The position numbers were made by a program, and so were the translations under genes. The notes below the pieces were generated by a model. It made no database searches. It was not told the DNA's origin and saw only the letters and a program-made list of their open reading frames with translations. A DNA stretch of 64,000 bases, taken from contig JAFYXH010000007.1 of the NCBI GenBank assembly GCA_017546315.1, forward strand, positions 14,508 to 78,507, given 5' to 3'. This document shows, in pieces, positions 2,608-54,725 of the stretch. Origin of the DNA: Alphaproteobacteria bacterium (GTDB taxonomy: Bacteria > Pseudomonadota > Alphaproteobacteria > RF32 > CAG-239). Within the stretch, counting starts at the first letter, position 1, and the number at the start of each line of letters is the position of its first letter.

Positions 2608-3246
2608 ATGAAAATAAAATATGCGATTTTTGATGTTGGGGGTGTGTGTTATCCGTATTCATTAAAGCCTCTTAATGATTGGGCTAAAGATAATTGCAAG
2701 GATGAGAAAGAATTTCTTAAAAATGGTGGGGTGAGGTGTGTTGATTATAATTCTTATATGCGAGGAGATGTTGACTTTTTTCAATTTTCAAAAGGATTGT
2801 GCGAGCGTGTTGGAATAGATTATTATAAGGGAATTGAAATCACTATTAACGAAAAGTTGCATGAAGGAGTTGGTGAGTTTTATAATGAAACGCTAGAGGT
2901 GATGGAAGAGTTAAAAGAAAAGGGGATTAGAGTTGGGTTGTTGTCTAATGCTCTTTCTAATCTTTCGGACACGGCTGATTTTTTGGTGGTTGATGAACTT
3001 TGTTTTGTATCGTATGAGTTGAGGTGTTTGAAGCCTGAAAAAGAGATTTATGAAAAAATGATAGATAAATTAGGGTGTAAAGCATCTCAGATTATATTTA
3101 TTGATGATAAAGAAAAGAATGTAAAAAGTGCTCAACAGTTAGGAATAAGAGGTGTTGTGTTTAATCGTGAAACATTAAGAAGAGATGTGTTTAATATTAT
3201 CAGAAGTTCTAATTTTCTTGATAGAGGGGATGTTTTTGAAAAATAA
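2608..3246 (+). CDS. HAD-superfamily hydrolase
   Basis: Motif I FDVGGV near the N-terminus, motif II LLSN, motif IV FIDDKEKN; RBS aaggtggtgga before the ATG at 2608 (the ORF-track start at 2560 is probably too early). Confidence 0.65.
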   Translation: MKIKYAIFDVGGVCYPYSLKPLNDWAKDNCKDEKEFLKNGGVRCVDYNSYMRGDVDFFQFSKGLCERVGIDYYKGIEITINEKLHEGVGEFYNETLEVMEELKEKGIRVGLLSNALSNLSDTADFLVVDELCFVSYELRCLKPEKEIYEKMIDKLGCKASQIIFIDDKEKNVKSAQQLGIRGVVFNRETLRRDVFNIIRSSNFLDRGDVFEK

Positions 3247-3295: not shown

Positions 3296-3301
3296 TGAGG
3301 T

Positions 3302-3600
3302 ATATGAGACATCAGTTTTGATGTTGTAGGTACTTTTTTGATACGTCTTAATAATTTTTTTTAAGAGGTATCTATATATATGATTATGTGTCATAAATTT
3401 CTTTTGAAAAAACTACATATACTCACGTACCTGTAGTTTTTTGATGCGCCTTAATAAAAAATTATTTTATTTAAGAGGCATCTATAAAATTATGAGCCAT
3501 AAACTTCTTTTTGGAAAAAACTACATATACTCACGTACCTGTAGTTTTTTGATGCGTCTTAACAAAGGTTAGTTTAAGAGGCATCTTCGATTTAAGGTTA
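3302..3600. repeat. about 2.7 tandem copies of a ~109-bp repeat, each with an inverted repeat and a T-run hairpin
   Basis: The unit 'ctacatatactcacgtacctgtagttttttgatgcg(c/t)cttaa...ttaagaggcatct' recurs starting at 3411 and 3520, with a diverged partial copy from about 3302; each unit has the hairpin aaaaactaca/tgtagttttt and the near-palindrome gatgcgYcttaa...ttaagaggcatc. Confidence 0.75.
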
Positions 3601-3759
3601 AATAATACATCAATCGTGAGTAGTTTATTAGAAATATTTTTTTTGTCAATAATTAATTTATTGGTTTTAAAGTGCAAATTGGGAGTAAAATGGATATATT
3701 CTTGACAGTATTTTGTTTTTTTTATATCGTTTGGAAAGATTTGATGTTGAGGGCAGTTA

Positions 3760-6294
3760 ATGATTTGGTCAGAAAAAGAATTGGCTAGTTTGGGCGAGAT
3801 GAGCGTCAACATGGTGGCTGAACGTTTTATGAAACGTTTAGGAGAGCCTGAAAATCATGAAATATTTGAAAGAGATAATTTTTCGTATTTATGGGGAATG
3901 CTTGGGGTTGCAGGTATTCGTGGAGTTAGTCATAATCTCTTGGGTAAGATTTGGAATACTTTAAAAGAAAATGGTGTGTTAGAGGCCTTTGATAAAGGGG
4001 TTTTAGGTGATTTTAATCTTAAACTTATGAAAAAGTGTCCTGATAGTAGATTAAGAGCTTGGCAGAATTTTGATAATTTTACGACGGATCAAAAGTTTAA
4101 GAAGATGGTTTTGATGCCTGTTGTTGCTATTGATAGAAGATTTGCACAAGAAGTTGACATGCAGGCGTTCAATCCGATGAGAGTGGTTGGTGTTTTAGAG
4201 CGTTATCCGATGAGTGATGCGGTGAAAATGATGCTTAAAGATATGCAAGGACATGGTGTTGCTTGTGGTATTTCTGGTAAAGAAGTGGTTGAGCATTATG
4301 AAAAAGAAAAAGTGTTAAAAAGACTTTGTGATATTATTGCTTTAGGGAAAAGAAAACTCCAAGAAGATGAAAAGGATTTCTTGTTTAGGTTTATTAGTGA
4401 AGCTGTTGAAGATGGTTTTGGGGTTGAGAATATCGGGATTAGGGATGAAGTTTTTGTTGGATTATTAGCAGATGATGAAGATATGGAGGGGAAATCTCCG
4501 ATTGAGGTTTCTCGTTTAAAAGAGCGTAATGCTGAAATTATTGATTTTGCTAAGAGATTTGATGATAAGTTGGGATTTTTTGAGCAGAGTGCTGCAAAGT
4601 TAATCCGTTATAATACTGCGCATACATCTGAGATGATTGAAAGATGTCTTAAGCTTATGAATGGAGATAATCCTAAAGGGGTAGTTTTTGTTTTGGAATT
4701 AGTAAATCTTAAGCAATATAAGTCTGCGGTAAAGATTTTGATTGAGCTTGCAAAGAAAGGGCGAGCAACAGAGGGAGGGTTGTTTATCCATAGGTTAATC
4801 GGCAATGTTAAAGGTGCTGAAAATATGTTAATGAGCATTTTTAAGCTAAATCTAAAAGTGCTTAAAGATAAAGGATATAATGATATAAATAGCGTATTTA
4901 GGGAGAATGTGGCAAGAATTTATGTTGCTGTGGTTAAGGAGTTTATTAGAGTTGGCGCTTTTCGTGATGCGGTAATATTGTTAAATGATTTGGTAGTTTT
5001 TTCTTGGTTAAAGGGAATTGAAGATATTGAAGAAGAAGTGGTTTTGTTAGCTAACTGGCTTTGTGGTAAGAATAGAGGTTTTGAGCAAGTTTTAGATGCT
5101 TGGGCAAGAGAACTTGGGGTTGAGGTTTTTGTTTATGATGGAAAAAGGCGTATTGGTAATGCAAATGCTGTTAGTAAACGAGCGGAAGAACGCTTTATCT
5201 TTTCTGGTAATGATGGTTATAATGTTAATATTGAGAGAATATTAAGCAAGAAGTATGAAGAAGATAAGAAGCGAAAGGTAGAGGTTAGTGCTATAAGCAC
5301 TAAAGATTTGGAAGTTAAGAATGAAGTTTCTACTAGTGCAATGGGTGAAGATGTTTACAAAGAAGAGATTAAGGTAAACGAAAATGATAGGGTAGCACAT
5401 AGTGAGCAGTTGATTGTTTTTGTTGAAGATGGGGTAAATACTGATAATAACTCGTCTGGTTTAGTTGTTGAGGAAGTTGTTAATACTTTAAGTAGTGATA
5501 GTGTTGAAGAAAATGCAAAAACTTTAGATGTTATGAATATTGAGGGGCAAGATTTTGATGCTGAGAAGAACCTTGAAGGTGGAGATAAAGTTATTGAAAC
5601 AATAACGAGCATTACCGAAGAGGCGATAATTAGCACTAAAGAAGTGGGTGATTTAGTAGAAAAAAGTGTTGTTAAGCAAAATAATGTTGAAGCTGAGTTA
5701 GAAAATCAGGTTTCTATAAGTGAGATGAGTGGTATCAATAATGTTGAAAATACAAGCAGTTTTGAGGTGAAAAGTCTTGAAAATAATGATGATGGATTGA
5801 TGGATGTTATTGGTAGTGTTGAGTTGATGGCTGATGATCCTTTAGAAGCAGCTATTAGGCAAGATGAACAAAATATCATAAATAATGAAATTGCACCAAA
5901 TAATGTTGTAGATAGTGAAGTTAGAGTGCAAAGTGCTGAAAGTAAAGAAGTTGTTTTAGAACCAAAAGAAGAGGGTGGTATTGTTGATGAGGGTAAAAAA
6001 ATAGAGTTTGAAAATGTTAAAACAGATATTGAAGAATGGGGTGAAGACGAAGAAAAAACTGAAAGTGTTTCTAGGATTAAGATCCCTAAGTTTTTGAAAA
6101 TAAACTCTAAAGAAATGGAAACGCAATTTAATAAGATAAAAGAAGTTACGGTTTTGGCGGTTAAAAAAGCTGAAGAAAAGGTTGAAGTAATTAAACAAAA
6201 AGTTGAAGATGGTGATATCGAAGAGCTTAGTAGAGAGGCTAGCAATAGGGTTCGGAGTATTCGAGATAAATTTAAGGGAATTATAAAGAAATGA
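3760..6294 (+). CDS. large hypothetical protein (844 aa) with an acidic low-complexity C-terminal half
   Basis: Long ORF; C-terminal ~350 aa rich in E/V/N/D/S with no recognisable catalytic motif; stop at 6294 abuts the ankyrin gene start. Confidence 0.6.
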   Translation: MIWSEKELASLGEMSVNMVAERFMKRLGEPENHEIFERDNFSYLWGMLGVAGIRGVSHNLLGKIWNTLKENGVLEAFDKGVLGDFNLKLMKKCPDSRLRAWQNFDNFTTDQKFKKMVLMPVVAIDRRFAQEVDMQAFNPMRVVGVLERYPMSDAVKMMLKDMQGHGVACGISGKEVVEHYEKEKVLKRLCDIIALGKRKLQEDEKDFLFRFISEAVEDGFGVENIGIRDEVFVGLLADDEDMEGKSPIEVSRLKERNAEIIDFAKRFDDKLGFFEQSAAKLIRYNTAHTSEMIERCLKLMNGDNPKGVVFVLELVNLKQYKSAVKILIELAKKGRATEGGLFIHRLIGNVKGAENMLMSIFKLNLKVLKDKGYNDINSVFRENVARIYVAVVKEFIRVGAFRDAVILLNDLVVFSWLKGIEDIEEEVVLLANWLCGKNRGFEQVLDAWARELGVEVFVYDGKRRIGNANAVSKRAEERFIFSGNDGYNVNIERILSKKYEEDKKRKVEVSAISTKDLEVKNEVSTSAMGEDVYKEEIKVNENDRVAHSEQLIVFVEDGVNTDNNSSGLVVEEVVNTLSSDSVEENAKTLDVMNIEGQDFDAEKNLEGGDKVIETITSITEEAIISTKEVGDLVEKSVVKQNNVEAELENQVSISEMSGINNVENTSSFEVKSLENNDDGLMDVIGSVELMADDPLEAAIRQDEQNIINNEIAPNNVVDSEVRVQSAESKEVVLEPKEEGGIVDEGKKIEFENVKTDIEEWGEDEEKTESVSRIKIPKFLKINSKEMETQFNKIKEVTVLAVKKAEEKVEVIKQKVEDGDIEELSREASNRVRSIRDKFKGIIKK

Positions 6295-6295
6295 T

Positions 6296-8305
6296 ATGGC
6301 GGGTGTAGAGTTTAATGGTGGTAAAAAAAATATGATTAGGGTTAATATTATGAGAAAAGTTAAGTTAGTTTATTTTTGTTTGTTGTTGTGCGCAATGTTG
6401 GGTGCAAATACTTCTAATGTTGAAGCTGGTGATTTCGATTTTGCAGTGGAAGAATGGGTGGATGAAGAAGTAGAATTAGAAGATGATGTTCTTGCTGATG
6501 AAGAATATGAAGAAGTTGTTGAAGAAGTAGAAGAGTTTGAAGATGAGGGAAATAAGCCAGAGTTTATTCCTGAAGGTGAGATTGATGAGGGGGCTCCTGT
6601 TGCTATTTCTCGTAAAACATCAAAAGTGGTTGGTTCTAAAGAGCTTTTTGATAAGTTAAAATATGGGCAGAAAATTCGTATGGATGATGTTGAGGGGTGG
6701 TTGTTTAATACGTCTGATGTTAATGAATGTCTTGAAAATGGTAAGACTATGTTATTACAGATGGTGGCTTATTCCTCGAATATTGAGGCTATTGCATTGT
6801 TGATTGATCATGGAGCAATATTGGCAACTACTTGTCAGCCTAATTATAATGCTTTATTTGTGGCGGCTCAGAACAATAAATCTCCGGCTGTGGTTGATTT
6901 GTTGATTACTAAAGGTGCTGATATTGTGGTGGAGGATTATGAAGGAAATACTGCTCTTAGTGTGGCGGCTGCTTCTAATCCTAGTGGTGGTGTTGTTGAG
7001 ACATTATTGGAATATGGGTTAAAGATTAACAAACCAAACAAAAGAGGACATACTCCTTTGATGTTGGCGGCTTTTAAGAATGATATTAAAGTTGTTAGAG
7101 AATTATTGAAAAATGGGGCGAATGTTAATCTGGAAGATAAGAATGGTAGGACTGCTTTGATGGCGGCTGCTTTGAGAGGTGATGATGATATTATGCAACT
7201 TCTTATTAAGCATGGGGCTAATTTTAAGGTAGTTGATAAAAACAAAATGAGTGTTCTTGATTATTATAATAAAAATAAATACTTAAAAGATGAAGCATAT
7301 ACAGAAAATAAATACGCTTCTATATCTGAAGTTCTTGAATATCGATATGGGTATGTGAGTGATAATCACTATAAATATAATAAAGATTTAAGAGATGCAG
7401 TGTTTGATGATGAAGCTGAAGCAAAAGTTGATGAAGCGATTAAGAGATTGGCAGATATAAATTCTTTGGATGAATATGGGTGTACCCCTTTGATAAACGC
7501 TGCTCGTAATGATAAATCTTTGAAAGTATTTGAATTGTTGGTTGAAGGTGGGGCGGATGTTAATGCTAGTTGTTTAGAGAAAATTACTCCGTTGATGTTT
7601 GTTTCTACACTTGCGCAAGATAAAGAGCGTGCTAAAGTGGCTATTGAAAAGTTGAAATTGTTAAATGATTATAAGTTAGATATTGACTTAGCAGATGAGG
7701 GTGGAAATACTGCTTTGATGTATGCTTTACAATCAGGGGCTAATATCAATTTTGTGGCTAGTTTGCTTGCGTTGAATGCGGATGTTAATGTAGTTAATAA
7801 GCGAGGTGAAACTCCACTTTGGATTGCGGTTAAACGTAATTTGGGTATAAAGATTATTGAGATGTTAATAGAGTTTGGGGCAGATGTTAATGCTAAAGCT
7901 TTAGATGGTGAAACAATTTTGTGGCATATGTTAAAAAATGGTGAGAGTTCTGAGAAAATTGTCTTGTTGCTTGAGAGCGGAATAGATACATCTGTTGTTA
8001 ATCCAACTGGTAAAACTCCTCTTTGGTATCTTCTTCTTAATGGTGGTAGGGCTGATATTTTGAACGCTTTGATTAAGTTTGAGAAAAATCTGAATGAGCC
8101 TAATGCTGTTGGTGATACGCCGTTGTTGTTTGCAGTTAAGAATGATTATCCGGCTGAGATTATTAAATCTATGCTATATTATGGGGCAGACCCTGAAATG
8201 CGTGATGCTAATGGTATGAATACTATGGATATTATGTCTCAAAATCGCTTCTTTGATATGACAATTAAAGAGCAAACAAGGGCAAAAGTTCTTAATCAGT
8301 GGTGA
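6296..8305 (+). CDS. ankyrin-repeat protein with signal peptide and acidic linker
   Basis: Signal peptide MRKVKLVYFCLLLCAMLGANTSNVEA (true start may be the ATG at 6332 or 6350); acidic stretch EEWVDEEVELEDD...EEVEEFEDE; many canonical ANK repeats (G-TPLM-AA-G---V-LLL--GA-VN). Confidence 0.8.
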   Translation: MAGVEFNGGKKNMIRVNIMRKVKLVYFCLLLCAMLGANTSNVEAGDFDFAVEEWVDEEVELEDDVLADEEYEEVVEEVEEFEDEGNKPEFIPEGEIDEGAPVAISRKTSKVVGSKELFDKLKYGQKIRMDDVEGWLFNTSDVNECLENGKTMLLQMVAYSSNIEAIALLIDHGAILATTCQPNYNALFVAAQNNKSPAVVDLLITKGADIVVEDYEGNTALSVAAASNPSGGVVETLLEYGLKINKPNKRGHTPLMLAAFKNDIKVVRELLKNGANVNLEDKNGRTALMAAALRGDDDIMQLLIKHGANFKVVDKNKMSVLDYYNKNKYLKDEAYTENKYASISEVLEYRYGYVSDNHYKYNKDLRDAVFDDEAEAKVDEAIKRLADINSLDEYGCTPLINAARNDKSLKVFELLVEGGADVNASCLEKITPLMFVSTLAQDKERAKVAIEKLKLLNDYKLDIDLADEGGNTALMYALQSGANINFVASLLALNADVNVVNKRGETPLWIAVKRNLGIKIIEMLIEFGADVNAKALDGETILWHMLKNGESSEKIVLLLESGIDTSVVNPTGKTPLWYLLLNGGRADILNALIKFEKNLNEPNAVGDTPLLFAVKNDYPAEIIKSMLYYGADPEMRDANGMNTMDIMSQNRFFDMTIKEQTRAKVLNQW

Positions 8306-8338
8306 TTTGTATATAAATATTTAGATCAAGATATAAGA

Positions 8339-8371
8339 AAAACCTCCATATTTTCGCAAACGTGGAGGTTT
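8339..8371. other. hairpin element copy B: stem aacctcca/tggaggtt around loop TATTTTCGCAAACG
   Basis: Seen directly; 34 nt after the ankyrin gene stop; same loop as copy A at 3264-3295 but a different, compensatory stem. Confidence 0.6.
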
Positions 8372-8575
8372 AGATTTAAAGTTAACAAAGAGAGATTTAT
8401 ATCTTGGGTAAATCGTTTCCTTTTTTTATTTTCACAAATTTCAAAGGGATATTACCGAAGATTCTAGTTTCTTATTACGAACAAAAGTTAACAAAGTACA
8501 GAATAATTTAGTAAGCATAATTGTAGTTTTAGTGGCTACAATTTATAAGAAAAAAATATTTTGTCAAATGTTATT

Positions 8576-28853: not shown

Positions 28854-30275
28854 ATGGTTGCTAGAACTCGTTTTGCACCTAGTCCTACTGGATATATGCA
28901 TATTGGTAATTTGAGAACTGCATTATATGAATATTTGATTGCAAAAGCAAATGGCGGTCAATTTGTTTTGCGTATTGAAGATACCGATCAAAAGCGTTAT
29001 GTTGAGGGGGCAACAGATATTATATATAATACTCTTAAAACAGTTGGTATGAATTGGGATGAGGGGCCAGATATTGGCGGTAATTTTGGACCATACATTC
29101 AATCTGAACGCTTGAAAATTTATCAAGAATATGCTCATAAATTAGTTGAGATTGGTGGTGCACATTATTGTTTTTGCACAAAAGATGAAGCAGATGAGCA
29201 GAAAGATGAAGGTGCAAATATTAAGTTTGTTGATCCTTGTAAGCATATTTCTTTAAGTGAGGCAAAAAAAAGAGTTGCTAATGGTGAGCAATTTGTTATT
29301 CGTCAGACGATTGACAAAAAAGGTAAGGCAATATTTCATGATGTTGTTTATGGTGATATTGAAATTGATTATGATGAATTAGATGAAGGTGTGTTGCTTA
29401 AGAGTGATGGCTTTCCTACTTACAATTTCGCTAATGTTGTGGATGATCATTTGATGGAAATTACTCATGTAGTTAGAGGAAATGAATATATATCATCTAC
29501 ACCTAAATACAATCTTATTTATGAAGCTTTTGGTTGGGAACCACCAATCTATGTGCATGTGGCACAAGTTATGAAAGATGCTCATAATAAACTTTCTAAG
29601 CGAAACGGCGATGCTTCTTTCCAAGATTTGGTTAATAAAGGGTATTTGCCTCAGGCTATTTTGAACTATATTGCTCTTTTGGGTTGGAATCCTGGAAGTG
29701 AGCAAGAAATTTTCTCATTGGAAGAGTTGGAAAAAGTTTTTGATGCGAATCGTTTGAATAAGTCTCCTGCTATTTTTGATATTCAAAAATTAAGATGGAT
29801 GAATGGTTGTTATATAAGAGCTTTGGATGGTGCTGAATTCCATAATTTAGCTGAAGTTCAATATAATAAATTCTTGAAAAGAAATGTTAATAGGGAGGAG
29901 TTATCTAAAGTGCTTCAACCAAGAGTTGAGGTGTTAAATGATATTGTTGATGTTGCTTCTTTTGTTGAAGAATTGCCTCAGTATGAAAAAGAGTTATTCG
30001 TTAATAAGAAGATGAAAACAGATGTTGAAATTGCTAAAAAATCTTTAGAATTGGCTATTCCTTGTTTAGAAAAGTTAGAAAACTGGACTAATGAAGGTAT
30101 CTTTGAATGCTTAAAAGAGATTGCAGTTAGTAATGAGCTTAAAAATGGGCAAGTGTTATATCCGGTTAGAATCGCTTTAACAGGATTAGAGACAACTCCT
30201 GGTGGCGCTTCAGAAATTGCCTCTATTTTGGGTAAAGAAGAAACATTGAGACGTTTAAGATTGGCTTTTGCTTAA
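28854..30275 (+). CDS. gltX: glutamyl-tRNA synthetase
   Basis: HIGH motif (PTGYMHIGNLRTAL) and KMSKS-like KLSKR; 473 aa. Confidence 0.85.
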   Translation: MVARTRFAPSPTGYMHIGNLRTALYEYLIAKANGGQFVLRIEDTDQKRYVEGATDIIYNTLKTVGMNWDEGPDIGGNFGPYIQSERLKIYQEYAHKLVEIGGAHYCFCTKDEADEQKDEGANIKFVDPCKHISLSEAKKRVANGEQFVIRQTIDKKGKAIFHDVVYGDIEIDYDELDEGVLLKSDGFPTYNFANVVDDHLMEITHVVRGNEYISSTPKYNLIYEAFGWEPPIYVHVAQVMKDAHNKLSKRNGDASFQDLVNKGYLPQAILNYIALLGWNPGSEQEIFSLEELEKVFDANRLNKSPAIFDIQKLRWMNGCYIRALDGAEFHNLAEVQYNKFLKRNVNREELSKVLQPRVEVLNDIVDVASFVEELPQYEKELFVNKKMKTDVEIAKKSLELAIPCLEKLENWTNEGIFECLKEIAVSNELKNGQVLYPVRIALTGLETTPGGASEIASILGKEETLRRLRLAFA

Positions 30276-30297
30276 GAGTTTTATTTTAATTGTCGAG

Positions 30298-30328
30298 CTC
30301 TCCTTTTGAAAAAAAGGAGAGTTTTTTT
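30298..30328 (+). terminator. intrinsic terminator of gltX
   Basis: ctctcctttt/aaaaggagag hairpin plus T7. Confidence 0.7.
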
Positions 30329-53801: not shown

Positions 53802-53892
<91 letters not shown>

Positions 53893-54599: not shown

Positions 54600-54725
54600 A
54601 ATAATAAGATTTTTTTGTTCAACATAAATATAGTTATCAGTAACAAACGTGTAGTATTTTTGTTTATTTGTCAATATGTTTTTTTAGATATATTTTTCAC
54701 ATAATTTGTTTTTAGATTTTGGATT

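Follow-up and report, generated by a model that had tools for sequence, protein, structure and literature searches.

CsrB and RsmZ are small RNAs (sRNAs) that display reiterated binding sites for CsrA. Like RsmY, they are produced from stand-alone genes with their own promoter and terminator, they vary in stem-loop number around one short apical motif, and they grow by duplication. A second design is seen in LhrC1-4, AbcR1/2, PrrF1/2 and Qrr, which are tandem paralogous sRNAs that act by base pairing; they arise by local tandem duplication of intergenic units of ~100 nt, each with its own promoter, terminator and single-stranded seed. Closest in taxonomy and layout are the Cuckoo RNAs (CcsR1-4, the ar14 group of Rfam), which consist of tandem homologous modules whose number varies between lineages, each with two hairpins and a conserved loop motif. 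They are found near genes for small RNA-binding proteins of the DUF1127 type (such as CcaF1), and the CcsR sRNAs lie in the 5' or 3' untranslated region of a gene for a 47-71-aa protein (PMC8034643). Here, we describe an array of 108-nt tandem repeats in a 64,000-nt stretch of alphaproteobacterial contig JAFYXH010000007.1 (assembly GCA_017546315.1; hereafter the window), located between a gene for a HAD hydrolase and a gene for an uncharacterised 844-aa protein. We propose, with a probability of about 0.6, that the repeats are a triplicated module of two hairpins, HP2 and HP1, inside a conserved gene that encodes a small non-coding RNA and is read from the minus strand.

The array shares with CsrB, RsmY and RsmZ a variable number of stem-loops, a single short apical motif and growth by duplication, and the gene outline proposed here, with its own promoter and terminator, is the same. 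However, the CsrB/RsmZ motif is (A)GGA, whereas the apices here are UUUGYGAAAA and UACGUGAGUA, with no Rfam match. Lineage-dependent tandem modules of two hairpins are shared with the Cuckoo RNAs, and in sister lineages a gene for a 49-aa basic protein occupies the slot of the array. The CCUCCUCCC anti-Shine-Dalgarno loops of the Cuckoo RNAs are nevertheless absent; the apices are instead of the GNRA type, the minus-strand loops being capped by GUGA (HP1) or AU-rich and variable (HP2) and the plus-strand loops reading UCAC. No small open reading frame (ORF) is present in the window unit, the 49-aa protein has no DUF1127 match, and the host belongs to the low-GC, uncultured gut Alphaproteobacteria, with linkage to the 844-aa gene. 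The likeness to CsrB/RsmZ and to Cuckoo/CcsR is one of logic only, and membership fails on motif, Rfam and partner protein. Local tandem duplication of ~100-nt intergenic units recalls the LhrC, AbcR, PrrF and Qrr genes, but internal promoters are unconvincing here and no seed is evident. Tandem direct repeats ahead of a gene and terminator-like hairpins are also features of type III toxin-antitoxin (ToxI) arrays, in which near-identical repeats of 34-50 nt lie on the same strand as a ToxN-like gene; here the module is 108 nt long and the evidence favours the opposite strand. A type III antitoxin array was rejected because the strand evidence is against it, the relatives are single-copy and the 844-aa protein has no ToxN/AbiQ or defence match.

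Searches of Rfam and of public sequence collections returned no counterpart of the module. Rfam covariance models gave no match at gathering score in the window and 14 related loci, and thresholding by E-value yielded only noise (mir-95, Bacteroides-1, BTnc231 and others). The HP2 pattern had 0 matches in a collection of genome contigs; a pattern combining the HP1 loop and HP2 gave three hits among JGI metagenome contigs and one among viral contigs, all by chance in unrelated GC-rich sequence. A blastn search against plasmids and phages found no match, and target searches within the window with the HP1 loop and the terminator loop gave matches at chance level only.

Anatomy of the repeat array

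The intergenic region between the HAD gene and the 844-aa gene is 513 bp long, slightly more than the 510 bp given in an earlier note on this DNA. Direct reading of positions 3298-3585 resolves two full units of 108-110 nt and one truncated unit:

3298-3372, minus strand: unit A, the truncated and most diverged copy, with HP2_A intact at 3340-3372
3373-3482, minus strand: unit B, with a spacer (3373-3406), HP1_B (3407-3442) and HP2_B (3443-3482)
3483-3585, minus strand: unit C, with a spacer (3483-3514), HP1_C (3515-3550) and HP2_C (3551-3585)

HP1 (AAAAAACTACA-N14-TGTAGTTTTTT) has an 11-bp stem flanked by A6/T6 and is restricted to units B and C. HP2 (GATGCGYCTTAA-loop-TTAAGAGGCATC) is present in all three units, with loops of 9, 16 and 11 nt. 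A T6-tailed hairpin and a near-palindrome had both been described in every copy; this holds for the near-palindrome, with arms closer together than the ~20 nt stated, while the hairpin is found in two copies and its stem is one pair longer than claimed. The HP1 position of unit A is degenerate and holds an unrelated small hairpin, ACAUCA/UGAUGU. As a candidate for antisense pairing, a segment of unit A (3314-3335) matches the leader of the 844-aa gene (3737-3758) at 17 of 22 positions; this resemblance is compatible with chance and absent from single-copy relatives.

Several lines of evidence confirm that the tandem hairpin repeats upstream of the gene starting at 3760 are real, structured and non-random. 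Tandem Repeats Finder reports 3350-3566 (period 108, 2.0 copies, 87% matches, score 330) as by far the top-scoring tandem array of the window, and a repeat search recovers a 57-nt pair at 95% identity together with three-copy families spaced 103-110 nt apart. A 41-nt core occurs exactly twice, against 0 occurrences in 100 shuffles. Folding is far better than that of shuffled sequences on both strands (z = -7.1 and -7.6), and the full minus-strand unit reaches z = -8.95. Model R2, which was built from the HP1-HP2 module, scores 94.9 bits for unit B and 60.8 bits for unit A on the minus strand. No further copy of the 108-nt unit was found elsewhere in the window. An assembly artefact is ruled out, since the copies differ (87-95% identity), an ENA contig of the same strain reproduces 8.5 kb without a difference, and three Logan assemblies built from other runs end precisely where the sequence first becomes k-mer-unique past a 43-nt exact repeat, the longest in the array. 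Such break points are as expected if those runs also contain at least two copies.

Outline of the proposed minus-strand gene

The same neighbourhood was taken from related metagenome-assembled genomes (MAGs; loci labelled L005-L033). In the window, the following elements frame the array:

3649->3622, minus strand: promoter of the proposed RNA, with TTGACA (3649->3644), 16 nt and TAAACT (3627->3622)
3586-3621, minus strand: predicted 5' segment of the proposed RNA, with an inferred start and a conserved block, UUAACCUUAAAUC (alignment A4)
3295->3257, minus strand: terminator hairpin at the proposed 3' end, a GC-rich stem followed by U8
3702-3730, plus strand: promoter of the 844-aa gene, with TTGACA, 17 nt and TATCGT, ending 29 nt before the ATG

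Taken with the non-coding body between them, promoter and terminator suggest the outline of a minus-strand gene. The alphaproteobacterial promoter consensus is of the type CTTGACA-N16-17-CTAnAn. On the minus strand, a TTGACA with a -10 element matching at 4-6 of 6 positions and a spacing of 16-18 nt is found, at the sequence level, in all eight loci with the HAD gene upstream. This perfect TTGACA sits 40-68 bp to the left of the TTGACA of the 844-aa gene and faces the opposite way.

At the other end, the hairpin at 3295->3257 has a 7-bp stem (AGCCCUC/GAGGGCU), an inner stem (GUUU/AAAU) and a GCGA tetraloop, and its apex, UUUGCGAAAA, is the motif of the hairpin family described below. The stem covaries under a conserved apex among L005, L006, L007, L009 and L027, with the versions AGCCCUC, AGCUCCC, GUCCCCAC, AGCCCC and AUCUCCC. 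Beside the HAD stop codon, a GC-rich hairpin with a U7-U8 tail is found in every lineage, on the minus strand only. Model R1, built from UUUGYGAAAA hairpins alone, scores the window hairpin at 37.7 bits on the minus strand versus 10.2 on the plus strand. A simple terminator scan skips it because the apical part lies beyond the loop limit of the scan. No ORF is shared between repeat copies or between lineages in the unit, and coding potential was rejected, as the small ORFs are not kept in frame between either. The locus displays, at the level of sequence, its own sigma-70-type promoter, an intrinsic terminator and a covariation-supported structure with no conserved ORF, as would a stand-alone sRNA gene.

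Alternatively, the units may be three separate minus-strand sRNA genes in tandem, each with a weak promoter in its spacer and with HP1 plus U6 as terminator, releasing RNAs of ~75 nt made up of HP2 and HP1. CcsR1-4, LhrC1-4 and AbcR1/2 are known parallels. Candidate promoters do lie on the minus strand just before HP2 in the spacers of units C and B (TTTCCA-17-CATAAT at 3517->3489 and TTTTCA-16-CATAAT at 3410->3383), but they match at 9/12 positions, are no more numerous than chance (5 vs 4.4 +/- 2.1) and lack the CTTGACA signature of the conserved promoters. The homologous spacer of the relatives lies between HP1 and the terminator, where a promoter would drive the terminator hairpin only. 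As for termination, HP1 is followed by U6 in the window, yet its stem has only 2 G-C pairs among the 11 outer pairs, and the relatives have only U4-U5. We consider separate genes unlikely.

Conservation, covariation and strand

The HP1-HP2 core of the window shares 84-96% identity with its counterparts in L005, L027 and L009; the corresponding values are 74-79% over the initial 900 nt of the neighbouring large gene and 53-66% in the spacers. At the sequence level, selection on the hairpins is supported. HP1 has one compensatory change, from A-U to G-C in L005. In HP2, a G-C pair is replaced by A-U in unit A, and a U-A pair is added in L009; U.G pairs in unit B and L006 form on the minus strand only, their plus-strand equivalents being C.A mismatches. 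All seven copies of HP2 keep a C.C mismatch, and the loops vary in length and sequence while the stems are conserved. Across HP1 and HP2, 8/22 pairs show double changes, a count from few sequences.

Several features distinguish the two strands. On the minus strand, HP1 folds into an 11-bp stem followed by GUAC/GUAU and a GUGA tetraloop. Model R1, in whose training HP1 had no part, gives both HP1 copies 18.8 bits on the minus strand (E 0.01) and 10.8 on the plus strand. As read on the minus strand, apical loops throughout the family are of the GNRA type (GUGA, GCGA and, among newly found members, GAGA), whereas the plus strand would give UCRC; only the minus strand can form a GNRA tetraloop with three closing U-A pairs. 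The minus strand has 59 G.U pairs and the plus strand 20 (33 vs 9 in an independent count), and the sequence 3' of the hairpins is richer in U tracts in the minus-strand orientation. GNRA apices, G.U asymmetry, promoter and terminator each indicate the minus strand, which reads away from the 844-aa gene, contrary to the plus-strand reading first proposed. All strand indicators agree in favouring the minus strand, even though their p-values are optimistic.

The window itself is compositionally skewed. At ~32% G+C, it has a positive GC skew of 0.2-0.54 in most 2-kb bins with no sign change, and it seems to belong to a single replichore whose strand bias is extreme. If the positive skew stems from excess C-to-T change on this strand, it would favour the opposite G.U bias.

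A hairpin family with a GNRA-type apex

The apex of the terminator hairpin belongs to a wider family. Its motif is UUUGYGAAAA in the minus-strand RNA sense, which corresponds to TTTTCRCAAA in the plus-strand DNA; most members conform to UUU-GNGA-AAA, and HP1 has the variant UAC-GUGA-GUA. Between two and nine family hairpins lie beside homologues of the 844-aa gene in all relatives examined. In alignment A6, 42 family hairpins align without gaps as a 13-bp stem with a 4-nt loop. Paired cells make up 85.9%, compared with 63.9% in shuffles and 42-56% with slid partners, and 120 cells are changed on both sides versus 46 in the control, while the 10-nt apex is invariant over the variable stems.

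Within the window, the apex recurs at 8351 and 8429, in a second unit between the ankyrin gene and the formate-tetrahydrofolate ligase gene:

8567->8337, minus strand: paralogous second unit
8567->8562 and 8545->8540, minus strand: second-unit promoter, TTGACA and TAAATT
8415-8452 and 8337-8374, minus strand: family hairpins of the second unit, scored by R1 at 25.2 and 40.4 bits

The two units align locally with a score of 89, against 46 +/- 6 for shuffles. A block akin to UUAACCUUAAAUC is found in this right-hand unit and in the arrays of distant relatives. The second unit is conserved in L005 and L006 and resembles the arrays of L013-L021, in which a non-coding stretch of 0.5-1.3 kb follows the homologous gene and holds 3-9 family hairpins in one orientation, with 3-8 recurrences of the UUUGYGAAAA apex. 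These arrays are located around 5600-6900 of their loci (e.g. 5890-6880 in L014), and conserved minus-strand promoters of the CTTGACA-N16-17-CTAnAn type precede groups of hairpins. L016 carries an independent tandem array (6038-6371) with a 153-nt two-hairpin unit in at least 2.2 copies at 97% matches, within which its contig ends. Model R2 is strong only at module loci and gives weak minus-strand matches in the distant arrays.

Could the hairpins be structural DNA or 3'-end elements with no RNA of their own, such as elements resembling repetitive extragenic palindromes or bacterial interspersed mosaic elements (REP/BIME), stacked insulating terminators or a neutral duplication? Family hairpins are intergenic at gene ends, many have A/T tracts on both sides, and they form arrays. 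An ordinary terminator in the window also resembles them: the hairpin at 30291-30328 (plus strand), after the gene at 28854-30275, has the apex UUUU-GAAA-AAAA and receives 24 bits with R1, and terminators of this organism may generally favour GNRA loops with U-A closing pairs. Yet family hairpins are not dispersed. They occur near this gene pair alone in the 64 kb, and across 19 loci only beside the homologous gene, in one orientation throughout; with no dispersed copies in either set, REP/BIME sequences and miniature inverted-repeat transposable elements were rejected. An invariant 10-nt apex and an HP1-HP2 core conserved above the level of coding DNA are unexpected for terminators or neutral DNA, and dedicated, conserved promoters point into the arrays. 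We regard purely structural elements as quite unlikely.

The slot in related genomes

Between the HAD gene and the large gene, the slot is found in one of three states. In the first, the slot holds a non-coding unit with one HP1-HP2 module. This state is seen in L005 and L027, whose homologues of the 844-aa protein are 75% identical to it, in L009 (the same as L028; 63%) and in the more diverged L006 (45%). All four have the order HAD hydrolase, intergenic region, large gene, ankyrin gene and formate-tetrahydrofolate ligase gene. In the second state (L007/L011/L012, L029 and L033), a conserved gene for a Lys-rich 49-aa protein takes the place of the module:

L007 3676-3825, minus strand: 49-aa gene
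L029 84-230, minus strand: 49-aa gene
L033 907-1056, minus strand: 49-aa gene

Two versions of this protein are 77% identical, with many synonymous differences when both DNAs are read, and the ORFs of L007 and L029 have no Pfam or NCBIfam match. In L007-type loci, the gene is framed by the same promoter and terminator as the hairpin module. The module as a decayed 49-aa gene was rejected, as there is no sequence similarity and a tblastn search of the window gave no match. In the third state (L030 and L032), a spacer of about 55 nt contains no repeats and the large gene is still present.

Relative to the single-copy loci, alignment A4 shows the window to carry an insertion of roughly 200 nt, equal to two extra modules. 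Unit C is the orthologue of the relatives' single module, as L005 and L027 share its right flank and the loop of its HP2. With one module in each sister lineage (L005, L027, L009 and L006) and three in the window, the sequences indicate that the 108-nt repeat is a recent, local and lineage-specific triplication. Module number, suggested earlier as a quantity to compare between isolates, thus differs between lineages (1 vs 3), but over the part shared by four assemblies the sequence is identical.

These comparisons bear directly on whether the repeats act in cis, on the plus strand, on the 844-aa/ankyrin operon as a leader or attenuator, an operator array or a copy-number switch, which was the emphasis of the earlier note. 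The repeats do lie 175-460 bp upstream of the 844-aa gene, HP1 with T6 resembles a terminator on the plus strand too, the palindromes could bind dimers, and module number differs between lineages. However, the promoter of the 844-aa gene lies downstream of every repeat and leaves a leader of about 22-30 nt. A perfect TTGACA, a 16-18 nt spacer and a -10 element are found 29-37 nt before the start codon in 15 of the 15 loci with enough upstream sequence, the distant, rpoD-neighboured ones included, so a leader or attenuator role is not supported. The gene also persists in L030 and L032, where the 55-nt spacer holds no module, and a protein-coding gene fills the slot in L007, L029 and L033. Operator sites for a dimeric regulator fit poorly with HP2 half-sites 9-16 nt apart, whose arms are conserved and change compensatorily. 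The plus strand has C.A mismatches where the minus strand has G.U pairs, and its loops, UCAC and UCGC, are not special tetraloops. Phase variation did not hold up either: units of 108-110 nt in 2.7 copies at 87-95% identity are not a slipped-strand tract of many 1-10-nt copies, and the four assemblies show no variation. Action in cis is very unlikely. An sRNA array, which had also been listed, comes nearest to the triplicated minus-strand RNA gene that we favour.

A model for the modular RNA

In the proposed model, the RNA would be transcribed divergently from the 844-aa gene, from the promoter at 3649->3622 to the U8-tailed hairpin at 3295->3257. Each module would be read on the minus strand as HP2 followed by HP1, and the RNA gene would span about 360 nt in the window and about 170-200 nt in relatives. 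The RNA would belong to an undescribed family flanking homologues of the 844-aa gene in uncultured gut Alphaproteobacteria, composed of 2-9 hairpins whose stems vary while the GNRA-type apex is conserved. The T6 tracts past HP1 may cause partial early termination, making shorter isoforms possible. Variable stems, a fixed apical motif and a hairpin number set by duplication suggest a design of reiterated protein-binding sites, and a modular RNA with such hairpins is our best guess from comparison with known systems. The RNA would act in trans, its apical loops serving as protein-binding sites in a decoy or scaffold logic, and through duplication about 2 sites would become about 4.

Several points weigh against this model. 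We infer transcription, the start and the 3' end of the minus-strand RNA from the sequence, and protein binding by the hairpin RNA is pure inference. The -10 elements are only moderate (4-6 of 6) in AT-rich DNA. HP1 with its A6/T6 flanks is symmetric and foldable on either strand, the hairpin at the HP1 position of L006 has no GNRA apex, and covariation in HP1 and HP2 comes from five lineages and a handful of events. Finally, many of the 42 aligned family hairpins are orthologous or paralogous, such that the p-values overstate their independence.

A more specific and doubtful extension is that the GNRA-capped hairpin RNAs are dedicated partners of the 844-aa, ankyrin or 49-aa protein in a new ribonucleoprotein system of gut Alphaproteobacteria. 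If so, the number of loops, from 2 to 9 through recurrent tandem duplication of the kind seen in the window and L016, would set the stoichiometry of the complex.

Neighbouring genes

To the left of the array lie a gene for an ECF sigma factor (minus strand), a gene for a 398-aa protein and the HAD hydrolase gene, which ends at 3246, followed by the 513-bp gap. To the right lie the large gene, the ankyrin gene and the formate-tetrahydrofolate ligase gene (minus strand):

3760-6294, plus strand: 844-aa protein
6296-8305, plus strand: ankyrin-repeat protein

A hypothetical protein encoded by an "Alphaproteobacteria bacterium" MAG with the locus tag prefix IKW58_, which comes from a ruminant gut catalogue (PMC8199421), has exactly the sequence of the 844-aa protein. 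Ruminant gut samples containing the strain include SAMN15830085 and the runs SRR12529221, SRR12529248 and SRR12529254. AlphaFold models a confident all-alpha N-terminal domain (1-470), an acidic disordered stretch of ~300 aa and conserved C-terminal helices. The protein has no match in Pfam, NCBIfam or PADLOC and no PDB sequence match, and a Foldseek search of its model against the PDB returned only generic helical-repeat proteins (E > 0.001). Its homologue is divergent from rpoD in distant relatives and is always found beside the proposed hairpin RNAs. In PADLOC, the ankyrin protein matches a candidate defence family, PDC-M72A (E 1e-57), although the repeats themselves may account for this match. 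Elsewhere in the window, a 28-nt tandem repeat (54665-54717; 2.0 copies, score 71) lies in AT-rich DNA ~0.8 kb past a tRNA-Ser gene (53802-53892).

Implications

With this analysis, an anonymous repeat becomes a gene model that can be tested. The case also offers a general caution for annotation, namely that the promoter should be placed before upstream hairpin arrays are called leaders or operators. The proposed minus-strand RNA would represent an undescribed family of structured RNAs, absent from Rfam 15 and strictly linked to a conserved, uncharacterised gene, with a host range that covers a clade of uncultured gut Alphaproteobacteria from ruminants and other hosts. The family would illustrate how a modular small RNA grows by duplication of hairpin modules, from one to three at this locus and separately in the 153-nt case. 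Its tight linkage to the 844-aa/ankyrin pair would provide a handle on the function of these two proteins.

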